Origin: an uncultured Bacteroidia bacterium
GTDB lineage: Bacteria > Bacteroidota > Bacteroidia > Bacteroidales > F082
Assembly (NCBI GenBank): GCA_902799345.1
Contig: CADBZW010000020.1
Coordinates: 50,603-114,602, forward strand
Direction: 5' to 3'
DNA: 64,000 nucleotides
Shown: piece by piece, positions 439-9,422 of the stretch
Layout of the letters: each line of letters begins with the position of its first letter
Position numbering within the stretch: position 1 is the first letter of the stretch
The notes under the pieces: generated by a model
Databases searched by the model: none
What the model was told of the DNA's origin: nothing
Seen by the model: only the letters and a program-made list of their open reading frames with translations
Position numbers and translations under genes: made by a program

Positions 439-627
439 CTATTTCACCACCTGCTTCCACCCCACCCAAAAGACGACCCTTTTGCCGCAGCAGGGGCAAC
501 GTTTTACGACAAATAGCCGCGTTTTGGCTGGCGCGGGATCTGTCATCGTGCCCTCTGGCAGGGTGAATAGCTTGATTTCGGTTTGGCAGCGGGGGCAGGT
601 GCGAATAAGTATCGAATTATCATTCAT
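439..627 (-). CDS. Small zinc-ribbon protein (62 aa), possible immunity or partner protein of the upstream nuclease
   Basis: Two Cys knuckles are present (CPRC ... CPCC). Its ATG overlaps the TGA of the LHH nuclease gene (ATGA), indicating translational coupling. Confidence 0.55.
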   Translation of the reverse strand: MNDNSILIRTCPRCQTEIKLFTLPEGTMTDPAPAKTRLFVVKRCPCCGKRVVFWVGWKQVVK

Positions 628-1136
628 TTACCATAGATTTTTCTCAGTTCTGTTGGCGTAAAAGCCTTGAAACGAGCCTTCCAATAGTCTGATTTCTCAC
701 GGTCGAACATTTGACGGTCGATTTCCGACTCTTTTCCGGCCTGATGCAGAATGGTGTTATTGCCGTCACCCATGTGCTCGGCCCAAGTAAGTTCGGCGAA
801 AGGCGAATCTTGATGTTGACCGATATGATGTAGTTCGTATGGATCGCCATTCATATCGCGGGGCGGAAAGCCTTCGCCTATCAAGTCGGCGTTGTTATAG
901 TCCACCCACTTGCTGTAATCGGCCAATTTGTTTTTCAGCCAAGTGTTACGTCGCACGCTGTAATCACTCCAATTAATGTCGGAGCGGATTAACGCCCAAC
1001 GATTGCCGATACGAGCGGCTTTCAGTCCAGCCTTCATGTAAATCTCAGCCTCCTCCATTGATGCGATGGCGTTGATGATTTCGTCGGGCCAGTGGGTAAG
1101 ACGATTGAGTTGTTGTTTTTCTAAGGCGTTCATCAT
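624..1136 (-). CDS. HNH/EndoVII-fold nuclease toxin domain protein, LHH-type (170 aa, stand-alone)
   Basis: The motif ...DMNGDPYELHHIGQHQDSPFAELTWAEHMGDGNNTILHQ... fits the LHH family of polymorphic-toxin nucleases (LHH, acidic residue, downstream His). No N-terminal trafficking domain is present. Confidence 0.7.
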   Translation of the reverse strand: MMNALEKQQLNRLTHWPDEIINAIASMEEAEIYMKAGLKAARIGNRWALIRSDINWSDYSVRRNTWLKNKLADYSKWVDYNNADLIGEGFPPRDMNGDPYELHHIGQHQDSPFAELTWAEHMGDGNNTILHQAGKESEIDRQMFDREKSDYWKARFKAFTPTELRKIYGK

Positions 1137-1333: not shown

Positions 1334-2620
1334 TTACTGTTTATTTTCTTCATTTAAACTATTTTCGGATCCCGTACCATTTAACTCATTTTCCACTCTA
1401 GCCTCTTCATTCTTTTCGTGTAACTTTTTTAGAATTTTATCCTTCAAAATCTTCTCTTCTTGTTCTTTTAACCGTTTCATCTCCTCTTTCTTCTTTTCAA
1501 ACGCATCAAACAAATCTTGTGCCTCAAAATAAATAGAATCAGAGGCCAACGAAGCTTTTGACAACAGCATATCCAAAATAGCATTTTTAATTTCTCTTCC
1601 CGAAAAACCTTCAATCATGGCACTTGCATAATCAACGTCTTCGTCTGTAATTTCTTTAGATAAAGGTAATCTTGCAGGAAGCATTTTTCTGATTATTGCA
1701 GCCCGTGCTTCTTTATTTGGTAGTTCAAATCGAATATGTTTCAAAATTCGCGATTCAAAAGCTCTATCGAAATTTGTAACCAAATTAGTAGCAAACAAAA
1801 CCACGCCTGAGTATTGTTCAAGTTGAATAAGCATTTGGCTCCTGAGGGAATTTAATGCCTGCTCGGATCCTTGAGTTACGTTTTGGATACGTTTTCCAAG
1901 AAAAGAATCTGCTTCATCAAAAAACAATACTGAATCTGTTTTCTCTCCAATTTCAAATGCCTTTTGTAAATTTTTCGGGGCTTCACCAACATATTTGGAT
2001 TCTATCTCAGAATAGTTTAACAGCAGTATTTTCTTACCTAAATAATTAGCAACAGCATGTGCACACATCGTTTTTCCTGTTCCTGGCTCTCCATAGAAAT
2101 TCAATATGCTTCTTGGTATTGGGTCTATTTCCCCAAAGCCCCATTTGTTATATACCAGTTCCTTACATTGAATGACTTTCAACGCATTCATCAACTCCTC
2201 CCTTACTAAGTCGGGCAAAATAATCTGATTAAAATTGTACCTTGGATTTATTGGAATGAGATCCAGTACATCTTCTTTCTTTTTCGTTTCCACAACTTCT
2301 TTCTGTTTAAAGTTTAATTTGATAATCAAAGTGTGCTTCTTCAAGCAGAATTCCAATTCTTCTTTTCGTTTCTTAAGATAATCCTGGAATAATGACACAA
2401 AAGGGAAGCTTCCCTCCAAAGAGAAGGAAGCATTGTGTTCCAGTAGAAAACTGTCCTTGTTTTTCTGATGCAATTCAAAAGCACAAGCGACCTTGATAGG
2501 CCATTCTTTTTTTCTTCTCAATGTGTCTGTTACAAAACAGTTTACATCAGTTTCCAATTGATTTACATAGACAATCTCTGTTGGTTCAACAGATGAAGGA
2601 AAGGCAACAATATTAACCAT
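1334..2620 (-). CDS. Classical-clade AAA+ ATPase (428 aa) with a unique N-terminal domain and a K/E-rich coiled C-terminal tail
   Basis: Walker A is GEPGTGKT and Walker B is VLFFDEAD. The SRH-like segment is ATNLVTNFDRAFESRI, followed by the lid region GFSGREIKN. The gene is very AT-rich. Confidence 0.9.
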   Translation of the reverse strand: MVNIVAFPSSVEPTEIVYVNQLETDVNCFVTDTLRRKKEWPIKVACAFELHQKNKDSFLLEHNASFSLEGSFPFVSLFQDYLKKRKEELEFCLKKHTLIIKLNFKQKEVVETKKKEDVLDLIPINPRYNFNQIILPDLVREELMNALKVIQCKELVYNKWGFGEIDPIPRSILNFYGEPGTGKTMCAHAVANYLGKKILLLNYSEIESKYVGEAPKNLQKAFEIGEKTDSVLFFDEADSFLGKRIQNVTQGSEQALNSLRSQMLIQLEQYSGVVLFATNLVTNFDRAFESRILKHIRFELPNKEARAAIIRKMLPARLPLSKEITDEDVDYASAMIEGFSGREIKNAILDMLLSKASLASDSIYFEAQDLFDAFEKKKEEMKRLKEQEEKILKDKILKKLHEKNEEARVENELNGTGSENSLNEENKQ

Positions 2621-2907
2621 TATAAATAAATTACTTGTCCAACATATAGTTCATCTGACACGCCATCGTCTGAAGTTACTTCGAGATCTTTAATTTTATC
2701 ATTCTCTTCGTCAAAAATCCCGACATTCACTTTCTTGGTACTTTTATCGTTAATTATCATTTTAATCGCATTAGCGAACTCTTTCTTTATGGCTTCTTTT
2801 AATCTTCTTTCATTGATTTTCCTATGAATAACCATACCTCCAGCAACAGAAGCTGTTATGACTGCAGCTCCTCCAAAAATGCATAGAATTATTTTCAACC
2901 AATCCAT
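2620..2907 (-). CDS. Small membrane-anchored protein, paralogue 4 of the tandem family
   Basis: The ATG at 2907 gives MDWLKIILCIFGGAAVITASVAGGMVI (TM helix). The tracked ORF extends to a TTG at 2964. The C-terminal NVGIFDEENDK...DELYVGQVIYL resembles the shared module of the three upstream genes. The stop overlaps the AAA+ start (TAATG). Confidence 0.6.
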   Translation of the reverse strand: MDWLKIILCIFGGAAVITASVAGGMVIHRKINERRLKEAIKKEFANAIKMIINDKSTKKVNVGIFDEENDKIKDLEVTSDDGVSDELYVGQVIYL

Positions 2908-2960
2908 AATATAAGCAATAAAAGCAGGGGATACTTCATTGATGCATCCCCTGCCAATTC

Positions 2961-3332
2961 TCAACTTAGAACAACAAGCGTCTCATTCCCAAGCACTTCG
3001 GTGAGTTCTTCATCAAAGCCATCAGCATATACAATCTTCATAGGATTAAGTGAATCTTTATCATTATTGTATACACCAAGAATTAGAACCTTTGACTTGT
3101 TTGATTTAATATTCATAACTTTTAGTTTCTCTTCTCCTGGTAAAGCCAAGAAAGGAATTTGTTTACCTTTAACCATAGAAAGTGTTTTGAAATAGGCAAC
3201 CACGTCTTCTAATTTCAAATCACCTTCAACAGTTTCTTCAAGAAGAGGTTCTTTTCTTTTGCACACTGCGTATACAAAAGCTCCAACTGCAATAATGCCT
3301 AAACCTATTGCGACACCAACTATTGTTTTCAT
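2961..3332 (-). CDS. Small membrane-anchored protein, paralogue 3 (123 aa)
   Basis: The N-terminal TM helix is MKTIVGVAIGLGIIAVGAFVYAV. The segment VVAYFKTLSMVKGKQIPFLA and the C-terminal EELTEVLGNETLVVLS nearly match the 3339-3686 product. Confidence 0.7.
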   Translation of the reverse strand: MKTIVGVAIGLGIIAVGAFVYAVCKRKEPLLEETVEGDLKLEDVVAYFKTLSMVKGKQIPFLALPGEEKLKVMNIKSNKSKVLILGVYNNDKDSLNPMKIVYADGFDEELTEVLGNETLVVLS

Positions 3333-3338
3333 TATTTC

Positions 3339-3686
3339 TTAACTTAAAACCACTAGTTTTTCATTGCCCAAAACCTCTTGGGTCTCTTCATCAATTTCAT
3401 CGGCAGCCAAATAACGTGCATTCTCAATCTCATCGGTTTGCTGATTATAGGTGGCTTCAAAAATACCCACATTTTTCACGGGAGCATTTTTAATCAAATC
3501 CTTCAACTGTTCCGTATTGGCAATAAACGGAATGTCTCGATTACGAACCAGGCTTAGGGTCTTGAAATAATTAACTATTTCCTGAACAAAGCTTATAATT
3601 CCTTGAATTATCTTTTGAACAAATTCTTTTAATGCGATGAAGAAATTCCTCAAAGCATCCATTATGACATTAACAAACTTTCCCAT
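3339..3686 (-). CDS. Small protein with amphipathic or hydrophobic N-terminal helix, paralogue 2 (115 aa)
   Basis: Contains IVNYFKTLSLVRNRDIPFIA and the C-terminal EETQEVLGNEKLVVLS. There is a 7-nt gap to the next gene. Confidence 0.7.
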   Translation of the reverse strand: MGKFVNVIMDALRNFFIALKEFVQKIIQGIISFVQEIVNYFKTLSLVRNRDIPFIANTEQLKDLIKNAPVKNVGIFEATYNQQTDEIENARYLAADEIDEETQEVLGNEKLVVLS

Positions 3687-3693
3687 GTCTTTC

Positions 3694-4125
3694 TCAATTT
3701 AAAATTACTAAATCCAGATCACCAAACAATTCTTTGGTATCATCAGCCAAACTTTTAGCCTCTACAACTACGTAATGATTTGTTTCTTCGGGTAACAAAT
3801 CGCGATCCTTTACATAAGCCAAAAAGACAAATACCGATTCATCTTTGGGTTTTCTTATGGCAACAACACCATCACTACCTGCAACCATATGATTCTTAGA
3901 AAATTCGACAAGGTTACTTACCGATAGAACATCAACCTTTTCAAAAGACACATCCAATCTAGCAACATCGATAAAATCTTGCGCATTATCTTTAATCTGG
4001 CTAATTATGCCCCCATCGTCAAACAGTTTTGTTCTTGCTCTTTCCCATATTTGACGAATTACGGGAAGAGCTTTTTCAACGAACCATTTTTTTAGCTCGT
4101 TCAAATTCAAATCCATCGTGTTCAT
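3694..4125 (-). CDS. Small soluble protein, divergent paralogue 1 (143 aa)
   Basis: The C-terminal ...VFVFLAYVKDRD...HYVVVEAKSLADDTKELFGDLDLVILN follows the same strand-turn-strand-acidic-LG-LV(V/I)L(S/N) pattern as the three downstream genes. Confidence 0.65.
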   Translation of the reverse strand: MNTMDLNLNELKKWFVEKALPVIRQIWERARTKLFDDGGIISQIKDNAQDFIDVARLDVSFEKVDVLSVSNLVEFSKNHMVAGSDGVVAIRKPKDESVFVFLAYVKDRDLLPEETNHYVVVEAKSLADDTKELFGDLDLVILN

Positions 4126-4151
4126 TTTCGATTTTTGAATTAATTAACAGC

Positions 4152-4439
4152 CTACTCTCCAAGTTTTTCGGCATCCCCTATCACTTTTGCAAGCACACAA
4201 AAAGAGCGTAGCCCGACTTTTATATTCCGAAAGAAAGGCTCTGGTAAACCGTATAGAAGAATCATAAAAGCAGTCCACGCCCATATAGGGCGGAACGCCA
4301 GAACGATTGCTCCTCTATTGTTGAAATTTACCAGATTTCTTCTTTTCAGAGCAAAACGTCTTTCAACGTTCTCAATGTCTGTCGCCGTAGCAACGCTGCA
4401 AATATACAATTTTTTCATATACTCGCACAACTCAGACAT
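4152..4439 (-). CDS. Small membrane protein (95 aa)
   Basis: ATG start. The central hydrophobic stretch is GAIVLAFRPIWAWTAFMILLYGL. The gene sits in the operon with gaps of 26-37 nt. Confidence 0.5.
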   Translation of the reverse strand: MSELCEYMKKLYICSVATATDIENVERRFALKRRNLVNFNNRGAIVLAFRPIWAWTAFMILLYGLPEPFFRNIKVGLRSFCVLAKVIGDAEKLGE

Positions 4440-4476
4440 TTTTTCTGCGGACTGCTTTCTCTCGCTTCGTTTTGGC

Positions 4477-4737
4477 TTAGGAGCCTTTCAAGTTCTTGGC
4501 ATAATAATGCTTGAATATCGGCTTGCAAATCTTTTTGTGAACAATCACATAAAGGATTACGCCGACAACGGTGCCGATGATTTTTATGATGATAACGTTA
4601 TCAAAGAATATGAATAAGGGCACCAACACAACCAATGCAGGCAATGCCGCCAAAACCATTGCCACCTTGTCGGCAGAACCTGCCTTGGTCCTCAGGTAAG
4701 CCTTGCGCCGTTGCGCAATTGTATATGCGTTCCCCAT
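4477..4737 (-). CDS. Small two-TM membrane protein (~86 aa)
   Basis: The hydrophobic stretches are VAMVLAALPALVVLVPLFIFF and IIGTVVGVILYVIV. The ATG at 4737 overlaps the TGA of the upstream gene (TGATG). Confidence 0.55.
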   Translation of the reverse strand: MGNAYTIAQRRKAYLRTKAGSADKVAMVLAALPALVVLVPLFIFFDNVIIIKIIGTVVGVILYVIVHKKICKPIFKHYYAKNLKGS

Positions 4738-5270
4738 CACACCATGGCTTTAAACAACGTCTCTAGATTCTCCACCAACTTGTCGTCGAAAGTGATTCCC
4801 CTGCCCAAGACCAACGACCCAACCACATTGCCGTTGAGAGACAAACGATGTCCCAAATAGGTGGTCCCTTCAAATACGATATCGCCTAAGCTGATTTCGT
4901 TGAGGTCGCTCAAAGCCACCTTGCCTCTTTTTTTGCCGGAAGCCAACATGGTGATTCCCCGAAAAAGGAAAGTGATTTTCATGCATTGGTAATACACGTT
5001 GCGGTCGGTCACCAACAAGCCCGTCAGCCTTCCCCATATCGCCACTTTCACGTCTACCATGAACAGGGGCTTCTCGCCGGGTTCTAGGCTCACATACTTC
5101 GCGTGCTGCTGAAGTTTCTCGTTAGTGATTTGGTCAGCCTCCAACAAAAGCGGGCTGATGACCTGGTTGCGACTCATTTTTTCAAATGTCGCTTTGATAA
5201 TTTCCGAATAGTCTTTCATTGTGATATGTTTCTGGTTATCTGATAGTTTTCCTTTTTTCACCAATCCCAC
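4737..5270 (-). CDS. Hypothetical protein with bacterial PH/GRAM-like features (177 aa from GTG 5270; 160 aa from ATG 5219)
   Basis: The pattern ...GLLVTDRNVYYQ...KVALSDLNEISLGD...LSLNGNVVGSL... resembles bacterial PH-like domains. The assignment is by eye only. Confidence 0.5.
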   Translation of the reverse strand: MGLVKKGKLSDNQKHITMKDYSEIIKATFEKMSRNQVISPLLLEADQITNEKLQQHAKYVSLEPGEKPLFMVDVKVAIWGRLTGLLVTDRNVYYQCMKITFLFRGITMLASGKKRGKVALSDLNEISLGDIVFEGTTYLGHRLSLNGNVVGSLVLGRGITFDDKLVENLETLFKAMV

Positions 5271-5671
5271 GAATCAATTTCCTGGCCTATTTCCACCATT
5301 TCCTTTGCCATCGACAGTATGTCGTACTCATCCTCGCCGTAAGCACTCTTGTAGTACTTACGTGCCGCTTGTGGATTTTTCATGGTTTCGTCAAATACCG
5401 CCACGAACTTGTAGCCGATTTCATCATCACCCAACTCGCTATAAACAGCATAATACAACACTGCGAGGTCGCATTTTTGCTCCAAACTCATCTGAGAGAA
5501 ACTGTTGCTCAGCAAATTGTCGCTAATTTTCAATGCCCTTTCATGATTATCATCATAAATACATTCGGCAGCCTCGTGGATTTTCTTGTCGATCGGGTCA
5601 ACTTCGCAGGCACACACGCTGAATAAAAGCGCCATCGCCATCAGGAATTTTGTCAGTTTTTTCATCGTCAT
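5258..5671 (-). CDS. Lipoprotein (start refined to MTMKKLTKFLMAMALLFSVCAC)
   Basis: A signal peptide is followed by a lipobox Cys. It is the first gene after a CAAAagTA (-7 box, minus orientation) at 5697-5704. Confidence 0.65.
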   Translation of the reverse strand: MTMKKLTKFLMAMALLFSVCACEVDPIDKKIHEAAECIYDDNHERALKISDNLLSNSFSQMSLEQKCDLAVLYYAVYSELGDDEIGYKFVAVFDETMKNPQAARKYYKSAYGEDEYDILSMAKEMVEIGQEIDSWDW

Positions 5672-5696
5672 GGATTTTAATTGTGTTTTGTATGCA

Positions 5697-5704
5697 CAAA
5701 AGTA
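5697..5704 (-). promoter_or_regulatory. Bacteroidota -7 promoter box (TAnnTTTG on the minus strand) for the lipoprotein to AAA+ operon
   Basis: The plus strand reads CAAAAGTA, 26 nt upstream of the ATG at 5671. Confidence 0.4.
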
Positions 5705-5799
5705 CGCAAGTTTCAATCCCGACTTTTTTCGGAAGAGAAAAGCCAATTAAAACCTTTGAAAAACAACGTTTTATAATCGTAAGAAATCGTAAAGTGGGC

Positions 5800-7467
5800 T
5801 TACAAGCCAAACAAATCCTTGTAATACCTGACCGCCGCCGAATCGTTTTCGAGGACTTTGGCTATTTTATCCGCATTGGCGTTTTTAGCCATGTTGTCGT
5901 CGGCAAAAAGTCGCTCCAAATCGTTCCAAGAAAGCCCCGAACGATGCAAGCCATAGAAAAGCAACTGGCCGGCCTTGCCCTTGACAGCCTTCAAACGCTT
6001 ACCTTGCCTACAGACAAAATTCCTCGACAACAATCCCTCCAGCAACTGCACCAAATCACGATCACCTTTGGCAGTGGCAATCACACAAGTTGAATCTTTG
6101 AAAACGCTGTAAACCAAGTTATTCAGTTCGGTTTTCGACATCTTTGCCGACAAATAATCAGATGGACGCAGCGACTGCCCTTTCGCGAGATTCTTGTGGC
6201 GTAGATAGGTCTTTTCTTTCCCGTGTTCAAGACTAACCTTTTCGTGGACCACACCATCGAACTGGAGCAACAAAGCCTGCCCTTTTTCCACAATGGAACT
6301 TAAATTCGGGCAGATGATCACTTCCAAAAACATCTTATCGCTGTCTTTCACATCCAGCAACAGCAAAATGCGACATAGTTTATTGTCAGCCAATGCTTTA
6401 AGACACGATTTCAAAGTATCATTGGCATCAGTAAGATAAAGAATGACTACATCCGTGTCCTCAAGAGAACCAACTTTGCCCAAATCGAACCACAACAATT
6501 CAGATAGTTCACCACCCACATCAATGGCTTTTGTATCAGCAATTTCCAGAGGGAACGAAGATGCGCAACGGAAGTCTTTGGTCAGTTCTTTTAGATGGGG
6601 TTCAAAAGCACCTACCAACTTGTCCAATTCATGTTTTGCGGACAGTTTTCCGATAAGGTATGACATTAATTCGTTATCCCAGATGTTGGGTTGGGCAACT
6701 TCCACCATTTCGGATGTCAGTTTCAAGTCTTCGGGCGGAACAAACTGGCGAAATCGCGCCTTCTGCAAGGCATTGAGCATGAGTCGGGCGGCAGTGGCCT
6801 CATCATCAAGGCAAAAAGCCAATTGGAAGTCGGCAAACAATTCCTTCGGTGATTTCTTTGGTTGCACCTTATATAAATAGCGGTTGATGGTCAGTGTTTC
6901 GGAACGGAAATCATCGAAATGGGTCAAACCCATGATTTCGTCCCTGGCAATTTTCTTGTCCAACAACGTTTTCAAGGCTGCGTTCCAAACCAACAGCACT
7001 TCGGGTTGCACGGTTTCCAATAATTCCTGGAAAGCATCCCAATCCTCGTAGCGATAGGCCAATCCTTTCTCCTCGTATTCAGGTACTTGTGGCGACGGAC
7101 AGAAATACTGCAAATAATTGGCGAAAGCCACCTGTTCCCAAAACTCCGTTTTTTTGGCTTCGGTGCAGTCGTCGGTCTTGCCTAACATCAGTTTCGTGAA
7201 ATAGGAATAAGTCGGATAGCGGTCGTATTCCTCCAAAAAAGCGTCGATTTCAATTTGGTTGCTTAGCGAAAGGCACAAGTCGTGGCGGTCGCCGTAGGCA
7301 GGGCAGTTAGCATCATAACTTGCACAATTCCTTTGCATTACACAATCCTCATAAAACGGGCACTGCTTCAGTACGCAATGATGCTTCACGCCCAAGACAA
7401 GGGTTCGGTAGCCCTTGAAGCCCTCTTGATAATGCTGCCCTATGCGCGGTTGGAAGAACATCGGCAC
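5800..7467 (-). CDS. Large hypothetical protein (555 aa) with a Cys-rich N-terminal region
   Basis: Long ORF with normal composition. Six Cys occur within residues 31-65 (HHC..QC..DC..NC..NC..LC). The GTG at 7467 touches, and the ATG at 7461 closely follows, the ABC-F stop codon. Confidence 0.7.
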   Translation of the reverse strand: MPMFFQPRIGQHYQEGFKGYRTLVLGVKHHCVLKQCPFYEDCVMQRNCASYDANCPAYGDRHDLCLSLSNQIEIDAFLEEYDRYPTYSYFTKLMLGKTDDCTEAKKTEFWEQVAFANYLQYFCPSPQVPEYEEKGLAYRYEDWDAFQELLETVQPEVLLVWNAALKTLLDKKIARDEIMGLTHFDDFRSETLTINRYLYKVQPKKSPKELFADFQLAFCLDDEATAARLMLNALQKARFRQFVPPEDLKLTSEMVEVAQPNIWDNELMSYLIGKLSAKHELDKLVGAFEPHLKELTKDFRCASSFPLEIADTKAIDVGGELSELLWFDLGKVGSLEDTDVVILYLTDANDTLKSCLKALADNKLCRILLLLDVKDSDKMFLEVIICPNLSSIVEKGQALLLQFDGVVHEKVSLEHGKEKTYLRHKNLAKGQSLRPSDYLSAKMSKTELNNLVYSVFKDSTCVIATAKGDRDLVQLLEGLLSRNFVCRQGKRLKAVKGKAGQLLFYGLHRSGLSWNDLERLFADDNMAKNANADKIAKVLENDSAAVRYYKDLFGL

Positions 7468-9422
7468 TATTTTTCATACTCCGCCATCACCTCGTCATGT
7501 TCCATCTGCCTCTCTCCCCAGTCATCCATGAGGTGTTGGAGTTGCTCTTTCTTTTGGCCGTAAGCCCAATACCAGTCGTTGTCAATCTTGATGTCGGGAT
7601 GCTCGTCGGGATGGGCCATGATGGCATCTTGCTCGGCTAGTTCGGCTTCCAATTTGCCGATGGCTTCTTCGAGGCGTTGGATTTCCTTGTCGACCTTGCG
7701 GAGCTTGGCGTCAATCTGCTTCTTGCGCTCGTAGTTGATTTTGTTCTGCGAGACAGGTTCAGCGGCGACTTTCTGAGGCTGTTGCTTGGCGGCTATCTCC
7801 AACTCCTTCAAGTGAGTGAGGTTCTTTTGTTCCAAAAAGTCATAAATGTCGCCAACGTACTCCTTGATGTTAGGCTTGCGGAATTCGTAGACTTTGTTGG
7901 TCAGACCTTGCAGGAAGTCGCGGTCGTGGGAGACGATGATTAAGGTGCCGTCATATTGGATTAAGGCGTTTTTCAGGATGTCCTTGGAGAGCATGTCCAA
8001 GTGGTTCGTCGGCTCGTCGAGGACCAACATATTGGTTGGGAAAAGCAGCATCTTGGCCAAGGAAAGACGGGCCTTCTCGCCTCCCGAGAGCACCTTCACC
8101 TTCTTGTCGATGTCGTCGCCACGGAAGAGGAAGGAGCCGAGCAAAGCCTTCACCTTAAGACGCATGTCGCCCACAGCCACATCGTCCAAGGTCTCAAAGA
8201 CGGTCTTGTTCATGTCGAGCATATCCTGCTGGTTCTGGGCGTAATATCCAATTTTAACCTCATGACCCAGCTTTACCTCACCTTCATGGTCGAGCACGCC
8301 GCAAATAATTTTAGACAGCGTGGATTTGCCCTCGCCATTGCGTCCCACAAAGGCAATCTTCTCCCCTCTCGGAATCAACAGGTTGACGTCTTTGAGGATG
8401 ACCTGGTCGCCGTAGGACTTGCTCACATGGTTCAGCTCCAGCGTCACCTTGCCAGAATGAGGCGCAGGCGGAAACTTGAAATGGATGGCTGTGCTGTCGA
8501 TGTCGTCAATGACGATTTCATCCATCTTTTCGAGCAGCTTCACGCGGCTCTGCACCTGTTTGGCTTTGGTCGCCTTGTAGCGGAACCGCTCGATGAACGC
8601 CTCTATATTCTTGATTTCGCGCTGCTGGTTCTCGTAGGCCGAGCGTTGCATGTCGACGCGCTCCTCACGGAGACCGACATACTCGGAATACGGCACCTTG
8701 TAGTCATAGATTTTGCCATTCGAGATTTCCACCGTGCGGATGGTGATGTTGTCGAGGAAAGCGCGGTCGTGGGAGACCATCAGGATGGCACCGTAATAGG
8801 CCTTCAGGAAGCCTTCGAGCCATTGGATGGACTCGATGTCGAGGTGGTTGGTGGGCTCGTCGAGGAGGAGCAGGTTGGGCTTTTTCAACAAGATTTTCGC
8901 CAATTCCACGCGCATTTGCCAGCCGTTGCTGAACTCGCGCATGGGGCGCAGCATGTCCTCATGGCCGAAACCCAATCCGACCAAAATCCGCTCCGCTTCA
9001 CCTTCGATGCTATTGCCACCGAGCAAGGCCAAGCGGTCGTTCAAGTTGTTCAACTTAACTATCAGCTTCTCGTATTGCGGGCTTTCATAGTCTGTGCGCT
9101 CAGCCAATTCCTGTTGCAGACGCTCCGAATCACGTTCCAGTTGATGGTATTCGTCGAAGGCAGAAAGGGCCTCATCCAAAACCGTTTTCGTGCTGTTGAC
9201 GTTCTTCTCCTGAGGCAAATAACCTATGGTAACGCCCTGAGGAATAATCACATCGCCTTTTGAAGGCTGTTCCAACCCACAAATGAGCTTCAGCAACGTA
9301 GTCTTGCCCGCACCATTCTTTCCCACGAGGCCGATACGGTCTTTCTCGCGGATCAAAAAGGAGATGTCGGTGAAGAGGTCTTCACCGGTGAAGTGCATGC
9401 TGAGGTTTTGGATTGAAATCAT
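7467..9422 (-). CDS. ABC-F family ATPase (translation factor or ribosome-associated type, 651 aa)
   Basis: Two nucleotide-binding domains are present (GKNGAGKTT and GRNGEGKST; LSGG signatures). There is an inter-domain linker, no TM segments, and a charged coiled C-terminal extension. Confidence 0.95.
   Translation of the reverse strand: MISIQNLSMHFTGEDLFTDISFLIREKDRIGLVGKNGAGKTTLLKLICGLEQPSKGDVIIPQGVTIGYLPQEKNVNSTKTVLDEALSAFDEYHQLERDSERLQQELAERTDYESPQYEKLIVKLNNLNDRLALLGGNSIEGEAERILVGLGFGHEDMLRPMREFSNGWQMRVELAKILLKKPNLLLLDEPTNHLDIESIQWLEGFLKAYYGAILMVSHDRAFLDNITIRTVEISNGKIYDYKVPYSEYVGLREERVDMQRSAYENQQREIKNIEAFIERFRYKATKAKQVQSRVKLLEKMDEIVIDDIDSTAIHFKFPPAPHSGKVTLELNHVSKSYGDQVILKDVNLLIPRGEKIAFVGRNGEGKSTLSKIICGVLDHEGEVKLGHEVKIGYYAQNQQDMLDMNKTVFETLDDVAVGDMRLKVKALLGSFLFRGDDIDKKVKVLSGGEKARLSLAKMLLFPTNMLVLDEPTNHLDMLSKDILKNALIQYDGTLIIVSHDRDFLQGLTNKVYEFRKPNIKEYVGDIYDFLEQKNLTHLKELEIAAKQQPQKVAAEPVSQNKINYERKKQIDAKLRKVDKEIQRLEEAIGKLEAELAEQDAIMAHPDEHPDIKIDNDWYWAYGQKKEQLQHLMDDWGERQMEHDEVMAEYEK

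Follow-up and report, generated by a model that had tools for sequence, protein, structure and literature searches.

A cassette of four related small proteins and an AAA+ ATPase in Bacteroidales: a candidate accessory conflict unit

Introduction

In the IetAS (IteAS) system, the AAA+ ATPase IetA is said to be paired with the subtilisin-like protease IetS; the two reportedly form a plasmid-stabilising toxin-antitoxin pair and a Gao-2020 anti-phage system. The ATPase acts there as the neutralising partner. Type III cyclic oligonucleotide-based anti-phage signalling systems (CBASS) contain one to three paralogous HORMA switch proteins, in which the terminal strand is important. ESCRT-III paralogues, which work at membranes, carry C-terminal motifs by which they are recognised. 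Msp1/ATAD1 removes tail-anchored proteins from membranes, and CbbX pulls the C-terminal tail of RbcL. Because they rest mostly on Proteobacteria and Firmicutes, defence catalogues give poor coverage of the Bacteroidales of gut and rumen. Here we describe a cassette of four small genes, lettered A, B, C and D in operon order, and an AAA+ ATPase gene that follows D. It lies on a 64,000-nucleotide (nt) stretch of DNA (the window; contig CADBZW010000020.1, positions 50,603 to 114,602, assembly GCA_902799345.1) from an uncultured bacterium of the Bacteroidales.

Like IetAS, the cassette lies on accessory DNA and places its protein partners directly beside an AAA+ ATPase that has a single AAA module and falls in the same broad group as IetA. 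It departs from IetAS in the ATPase, which scores 91 bits against a 510-bit cut-off and has a different N-domain, and in the partners, a set of four small alpha/beta paralogues of which two are membrane-anchored; the peptidase domain that an IetS would have was not found in any window gene between 439 and 7467 (Pfam, NCBIfam). With the TRIP13/Pch2-HORMA part of type III CBASS it shares an AAA+ remodeller encoded with small paralogous alpha/beta proteins, and the PADLOC TRIP13 models match the ATPase weakly (1.1e-13). However, Foldseek finds no HORMA fold in the models of A and B, the cassette holds no CD-NTase or effector gene (Pfam, PADLOC), and its module, unlike HORMA, is about 70-90 residues long and partly membrane-anchored.

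The likeness to CbbX and Msp1/ATAD1 is a mechanistic analogy only: the pore loop is intact, the partners have either a free C-terminus that is strictly conserved or one membrane helix, and the x-S-R motif of the ATPase has a single arginine, like that of the CbbX/SpoVK/EccA group. The CbbX model itself is far from matching (E 0.001; the score is 18 bits and the cut-off 459 bits), and the cassette terminus is predicted to be a sheet strand. Vps4/CdvC with ESCRT-III likewise sets a classical-clade AAA+ protein beside a group of paralogous small proteins (CdvC model, 1.2e-22), but the cassette lacks MIT and Snf7 domains (Pfam), its partners are alpha/beta proteins rather than helical hairpins, and its distribution is sporadic and accessory. 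As far as its sequences and models can be compared, the cassette matches no described system, and its module is without known sequence or fold relative in Pfam, the PDB and BFVD. What emerges is a compact, sharply bounded candidate system of leader, four paralogues and AAA+ ATPase, whose module belongs to a family of 377 clusters without annotation.

Results

Organization of the cassette

In the list of open reading frames (ORFs) of the window, five minus-strand genes are packed in the order A, B, C, D, AAA+ (Table 1). Only 6-7 nt separate A from B and B from C, and the last base of the D stop codon is the first base of the AAA+ start codon. The G+C content of the cassette is 35%, compared with about 50% in its flanks and about 45-55% elsewhere in the window. 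The four tandem genes recognised in an earlier note on this DNA are thus present as four consecutive ORFs, with one correction: the true start of D is most likely the ATG at 2907 rather than the listed TTG at 2964, because D orthologues are 88-101 amino acids (aa) long and the TTG frame would cross a strong hairpin. Some D orthologues are longer and have several extra membrane helices (loci L014, L015 and L021).

Homology of the four small proteins

At the sequence level, B and C are certainly clear paralogues. They are 44% identical across 85 residues (BLASTP, E 9e-18), their family profiles align with hhalign E values of 3.9e-28 and 2e-31, and they share the block YFKTLS...IPF(I/L)A, whose near-identity in two members had been noticed before and is real, as well as the common end LGNE-x-LVVLS. 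Pairwise comparison places A and D at the border of detection (E 0.02-0.03 overall; 0.028 for A against B/C). Orthologues of each position were gathered from 13-15, later about 55, related loci, and family profiles (of 13-34 orthologues for A against B/C) were compared by hhalign, with controls in which the alignment columns were permuted (40-60 shuffles per pair).

On these profiles, A aligns with B at E 4e-4 and with C at E 3.5e-5 to 9e-5, colinearly over up to 84-89 columns (scores 28-35 against B/C), and D aligns with B at E 8e-5 to 1.2e-4 and with C at E 5e-4 to 3e-3 (scores 27-32 with the larger families, reached by 0 of 40 shuffles). Shuffled controls score about 12 ± 2 with a maximum of 17-21, compared with 27-35 for the real profiles, and for none of the pairs A-B, A-C, B-D and C-D does any of the 40-60 shuffles equal the real score. 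Direct comparison of A with D by hhalign is not significant, the real score being matched by 3 of 60 and 11 of 40 shuffles. The N-domain of the AAA+ protein, taken as a negative control, stays at noise level against the A-D families (E 0.3-0.5), which also rules it out as a fifth copy of the module. When a hidden Markov model (HMM) of B and C was run against the 21,029 ORFs of the same genome, A members (E 0.0016-0.0028) and D (E 0.067) came right behind B and C, and no unrelated ORF ranked above A or D.

A, B, C and D are thus one family, joined through B/C. A and D are related to B/C at the profile level only, an A-D link is not detectable, and D is the most degenerate member: its alignment to B/C covers just the helix/strand/turn region (K-x-V-N-V-G-I-F), and its terminus is unlike the LVVLS-type motif of B/C. 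The C-terminal module that the earlier note ascribed to all four proteins is thus confirmed: it is significant in formal alignment, clearly so for B and C and through profiles for A and D against B/C.

Size of the family, predicted structure and membrane topology

When all 1.84 billion sequences of a representative library were scanned with HMMER, the B/C module was retrieved in 377 representative clusters at E ≤ 0.001, all of them uncharacterised small proteins, with no well-characterised family among them. The module nearly always terminates in h-V-V-L-x-COOH. In the best 150 of the 377 B/C-type representatives, the same terminal strand followed by exactly one residue occurs in 148, the terminus h-h-h-h-x-COOH in 135 and an N-terminal membrane segment in 71. 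The module has few invariant polar residues and therefore looks structural rather than enzymatic. When all 33 B/C members were scanned, the only recurrent matches, to phiKZ_IP and IFS, were below threshold (best E 0.002-0.006); they were treated as noise from helical regions. In one 254-aa protein of the representative library (P0066), a C-like part consisting of membrane helix and module is fused to a second B/C-type module in one polypeptide, an arrangement that points to modules acting jointly.

Structure comparison covers AlphaFold2 models of A and B. The model of B has a mean predicted local distance difference test (pLDDT) score of 84.8 and a predicted template modelling score of 0.81, and the C-terminal domain of A has a pLDDT of about 80-87. 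The two models agree in the order of their elements: strand, helix, two or three strands, helix and terminal strand. The terminal motif is predicted as a strand of the sheet and not as a loose tail. Foldseek searches of the PDB with both models gave best E values of 0.03-0.2 at template modelling scores below 0.4, that is, no match and no HORMA protein; the model of B had no match in BFVD either, and profile searches of the PDB with the A and B/C alignments returned nothing under E 0.01.

The N-termini of the four proteins differ, as had been claimed, and each type is kept across orthologues: A is without hydrophobic segment, B begins with an amphipathic helix, and C and D have membrane helices. 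In the model of B, the N-terminal helix lies against the module and may thus not serve as a membrane anchor. Lysine or arginine (K/R) follows the membrane helix in C orthologues and in most D orthologues; by the positive-inside rule, the modules of C and D are therefore predicted to face the cytoplasm, on the same side as the ATPase.

The AAA+ ATPase

The ATPase has its own N-domain of about 110 aa, a single AAA module and a charged tail. It is a classical AAA+ protein (PF00004, E 1e-26, 94.2 bits against a cut-off of 21.2), and its best solved relatives are Cdc48/p97/VAT (3e-35, PDB). Its best profile match overall is the uncharacterised phrog_3757 (1.8e-50), and its best PADLOC match is to the IetA models (6.3e-30); CdvC (1.2e-22) and PAN are among its best named families, both far under their cut-offs. 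Because Walker A and B, the pore loop, the sensor and the arginine are all kept, the protein looks like a working substrate-threading unfoldase; its pore loop 1 has the aromatic-hydrophobic-Gly pattern of threading unfoldases. A profile of the N-domain found no relative in the PDB, and a word-based search with it returned close relatives only.

The closest phage-borne relatives of the ATPase lie in Moraxella phage Mcat5 (L025, 47045-47875) and in the faecal phage scaffold MT835507 (L026); they are about 43% identical over the AAA module and stand beside unannotated genes. The ATPase subfamily is wider than the cassette, since these phage relatives exist, yet tblastn of B finds no phage match.

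Distribution, order and recombination

The order A-B-C-D-AAA+ is unchanged in every locus long enough to judge among the roughly 55 compared. It occurs exactly in this form in 30 loci and with extra copies in nine (two D in six, and one each with two C, with two C and two D, and with two B); the remaining patterns are truncated where a contig ends, and no member is missing otherwise. A orthologues occupy the first of the four positions in all loci. This order and the one-base overlap of D and AAA+ bear out the suggestion that the neighbouring ATPase and the four proteins go together.

Hosts include Lepagella, Limimorpha, Bacteroidaceae, Paludibacteraceae and other Bacteroidales genomes, as well as metagenome contigs, some from the human gut. 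The cassette is rare: sampling of the order turned it up in 2 of 400 other genomes, the three sampled genomes of the genus lack it, and its chromosomal insertion sites differ between loci. Its low G+C content, sporadic presence and varying insertion sites mark it as an apparently accessory, horizontally mobile unit.

Distant Bacteroidales have orthologues at each of the four positions, which makes the duplications old; they are also older than the spread of the cassette, because the B modules form one well-supported clade in the module tree. The set is fixed, and the idea of a local gene-family expansion is abandoned here. The companion idea of shuffled targeting regions survives, as an exchange of anchors is visible in several loci. 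An extra small gene in L004 (6001-6444) is a chimera that joins the C anchor and linker of L004 to a module near-identical to that of L004 B, with a 7-residue duplication in the C-derived part. In L033, L037 and L054, the C-position proteins nest in the B clade beside their own B; there the module was swapped for a B-type copy with the membrane anchor retained. Anchors and modules evidently recombine repeatedly within loci.

Leader and C-D hairpin

Upstream of A lies a conserved non-coding leader that is 75% identical over 223 nt (blastn) to L010 4448-4668, where it stands upstream of DUF6140-A-B-C-D-AAA+. Further nhmmer matches lie upstream of DUF6140 or A in L010, L031, L055, L058, L057, L062 and L063, and upstream of DUF6140 on contig C47 of the same genome and in G140. 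A Bacteroides-type -7 box, TATATTTG, is found at 4406-4399, at the start of the leader, and invariant blocks follow the pattern TCTGGTAAA ... GGxGTGGA ... TTTACCAGAGCC. These include complementary arms of 9 nt; RNAalifold predicts an invariant 9-bp helix only, with no covariation. Because the leader marks the head of the cassette, the cassette probably begins at about 4424. A 95-aa ORF at 4152-4439 (minus strand) is probably not a gene, since it lies almost wholly over the leader and has no protein homologues in related loci. The genes upstream of A (95, 87, 177 and 162 aa) were considered as cassette members and rejected, having no homologues in the 17 loci compared. Between the leader and the start of A, positions 4149-4181 (minus strand) give a sub-threshold match to the Rfam DUF805b RNA RF02914 (E 5.6e-5; 25 bits, where the gathering score is 35.6).

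A 72-aa DUF6140 gene lies directly upstream of A in 24 of 41 loci; in the window, the leader precedes A directly, without this gene. The leader, and DUF6140 in those 24 loci, are common to the cassette and to other defence-like cassettes. The cassette could thus help to explain a leader/DUF6140 unit that heads several unrelated cassettes. The only DUF6140 gene of the genome (contig C47, L067; 8164-8412) heads a separate minus-strand cassette at 4052-8412, in which it is followed by genes for a 118-aa protein, a 468-aa radical-SAM protein, a 215-aa P-loop NTPase, a 163-aa membrane protein and a 259-aa protein. Elsewhere, a dynamin-like gene (L005-L007, L013) and the gene of a 344-aa protein (L068) stand behind DUF6140, which is itself rare: sampling of the order found it in 3 of 150 other genomes. 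We found no description of DUF6140 or of Bacteroidales AAA+ defence cassettes in the literature, within a partial coverage of the journals.

The hairpin in the C-D spacer is unusually stable (z -3.95; 0 of 200 shuffles equally stable). Strong hairpins of unrelated sequence occupy the same spot in L004, L005, L008-L012, L017, L028, L029, L032, L033, L035, L037 and L061, whereas other cassettes have C-D gaps of 2-15 nt instead. The hairpin may be an internal attenuator or an mRNA-stabilising element. It would then set the levels of A, B and C above those of D and the ATPase, which may fit abundant subunits and a scarcer controller.

Table 1. Positions of the cassette features and adjoining genes in the window; motif positions of the ATPase are residues of the protein.
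Feature	Position	Strand or numbering	Description
A	3694-4125	-	143 aa; soluble; long N-terminal helix, low-confidence linker, C-terminal alpha/beta module; end LVILN
B	3339-3686	-	115 aa; amphipathic N-terminal helix; end LVVLS
C	2961-3332	-	123 aa; N-terminal membrane helix, then KRKE; end LVVLS
D	2620-2907	-	95 aa from ATG (most likely start); membrane-anchored, degenerate paralogue; end VGQVIYL
D as listed	2620-2964	-	TTG start, 114 aa
AAA+ ATPase	1334-2620	-	428 aa; classical clade
Walker A GEPGTGKT	177-184	protein residues	conserved in 10 orthologues
Pore loop KYVG	209-212	protein residues	K-W-V-G in one orthologue
Walker B FFDEAD	about 231-238	protein residues	conserved in 10 orthologues
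Sensor ATN	277-279	protein residues	conserved in 10 orthologues
FESR (single arginine)	288-291	protein residues	conserved in 10 orthologues
Stem-loop in C-D spacer	2912-2963	-	RNA fold -24 kcal/mol, then UUUUAUU
Conserved non-coding leader	4181-4424	-	blastn and nhmmer; head of cassette
LHH (HNH/EndoVII) nuclease	624-1136	-	PF14411, 3.7e-19; 197 nt downstream of AAA+, stand-alone
Zinc-ribbon gene, CPxC...CPCC	439-627	-	62 aa; follows nuclease, 4-nt overlap

Discussion

We propose that the cassette encodes a membrane-associated hetero-complex of four ancient module copies that is remodelled by the AAA+ unfoldase and serves as an accessory conflict unit, a proposal for which we judge the case to be evenly balanced. 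The modules of A to D would assemble with one another on the cytoplasmic face of the inner membrane, where C and D would tether the complex through their N-terminal membrane helices and A and B would be soluble members. The AAA+ ATPase, as a hexamer, would act on this complex, with the strictly conserved free C-terminus (h-V-V-L-x-COOH) as a plausible handle to pull, and would thereby drive its ATP-dependent assembly, disassembly or extraction. The unit would probably work in anti-phage abortive infection, or else stabilise its carrier DNA in the manner of a toxin-antitoxin pair; harm or effector action would then come from the membrane-anchored paralogues and control from the ATPase, as in IetAS. 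The homology of the four proteins, their conserved membrane anchors with the K/R pattern, the unvarying gene order, the intact ATPase and the scattered occurrence are shown by the analysis; the physical complex, the grip of the ATPase on the C-termini and any defence or toxic activity are inferred.

The neighbourhoods of the cassette are rich in defence genes: 106 dereplicated neighbours include AbiEii/AbiEi, AbiD, WYL and the PADLOC candidates PDC-S01, S05, S27, S30 and M04, along with DUF3800, RhuM and dynamin-like genes. Several observations weigh against the proposal. Many of the neighbours are housekeeping genes, and the defence-type ones are a plain listing without formal background rate. 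Many of the roughly 55 loci are near-identical, so that counts over them are not independent. The conserved core contains no recognisable effector enzyme, and A-D have no meaningful matches in Pfam, PADLOC, NCBIfam and PHROG scans; in PADLOC-DB 2.0, which holds known and candidate defence models, no family is reached at E up to 1. The best NCBIfam match of the ATPase, IteA NF042959 (E 6.2e-26), stays at 91.4 bits against a cut-off of 510. The membership of D in the module family depends on about 30 aligned columns. Finally, tblastn of B gave no matches in INPHARED and PLSDB, and no cassette relative was seen among IMG/VR viral contigs with the patterns used.

A fuller version, which we put forward tentatively and regard as possible rather than probable, is that the cassette is an undescribed immune or addiction module. 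In such a module, the unfoldase would control the membrane-tethered four-paralogue complex through its C-termini, infection or loss of the ATPase would free a membrane-damaging complex, and the whole would be wired to the leader/DUF6140 control unit. If true, an unfoldase that rules a membrane hetero-complex through C-termini would be unusual among accessory modules. For annotation, the gain is that four orthologous groups become nameable, the start of D is corrected and a probably spurious ORF is removed.

Alternatively, the cassette could be a machine for handling membrane proteins, in which the AAA+ protein extracts, inserts or assembles the anchored paralogues in a Msp1- or Bcs1-like manner, or uses them as adaptors for other clients, in the service of envelope maintenance in some strains. 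Such a machine would be in keeping with a classical-clade ATPase whose pore loop is intact, with two partners that have a single N-terminal membrane helix and, in most orthologues, K/R behind it, and with a core devoid of effector enzymes. A housekeeping role, however, predicts lineage-wide vertical inheritance, whereas the cassette is found in 2 of 400 genomes of the order and in 0 of 3 congeners, with low G+C content, varying insertion sites and defence-type neighbours. We consider this alternative unlikely.

It is also conceivable that only B and C are true paralogues and that the likeness of A and D is convergent or compositional, arising from a short hydrophobic strand and an acidic stretch in otherwise unrelated proteins. 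The borderline pairwise E values, hhalign probabilities of 34-59%, the insignificance of A against D, the missing terminal motif of D, and the absence from the Foldseek results of any family that would anchor the model of A or B are what such an explanation would lead one to expect. It would leave unaccounted for that shuffles never reach the A-B, A-C, B-D and C-D scores, that the aligned regions are colinear and C-terminal, that, among 21,029 decoy ORFs, the B+C HMM has A and D as its best non-self matches, and that the element order agrees between the two models while the N-domain control remains at noise. An unrelated A and D is accordingly, in our view, quite improbable, and we retain the single four-member family as the basis of the proposed complex.

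That the four proteins form a diversified immunity or adaptor array against toxins such as the neighbouring LHH nuclease, as the earlier note suggested for immunity proteins, can be largely set aside as very improbable: the nuclease gene does lie 197 nt downstream of AAA+ on the same strand, and the Pfam family IFS ('immunity factor for SPN') is matched weakly and below threshold by 7 of the 33 B/C members (best E 0.006), but polymorphic-toxin immunity arrays vary in content and copy number, whereas A-B-C-D are fixed in order and number and always accompany AAA+, no Imm or SUKH-type family is matched, and the LHH toxin occurs in the window only.

Other genes around the cassette recur in part of the loci. 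In 13 of 35 loci (L005-L010, L012, L013, L017, L028, L032, L035, L037, L041), the gene after the ATPase is an uncharacterised one of about 126-132 aa whose product begins with M-x-T-T-T-L; the window cassette has neither this gene nor DUF6140. Close to the cassette but on the other strand, L004-L007, L012, L013, L017 and L028 encode a 460-530-aa protein without Pfam match. The LHH nuclease and the zinc-ribbon gene that follows it were considered as cassette members and rejected, as neither has a homologue in the other roughly 55 loci; both are a local addition. A decayed copy of the zinc-ribbon C-terminus is recognisable in the 197-nt spacer between the ATPase and nuclease genes.

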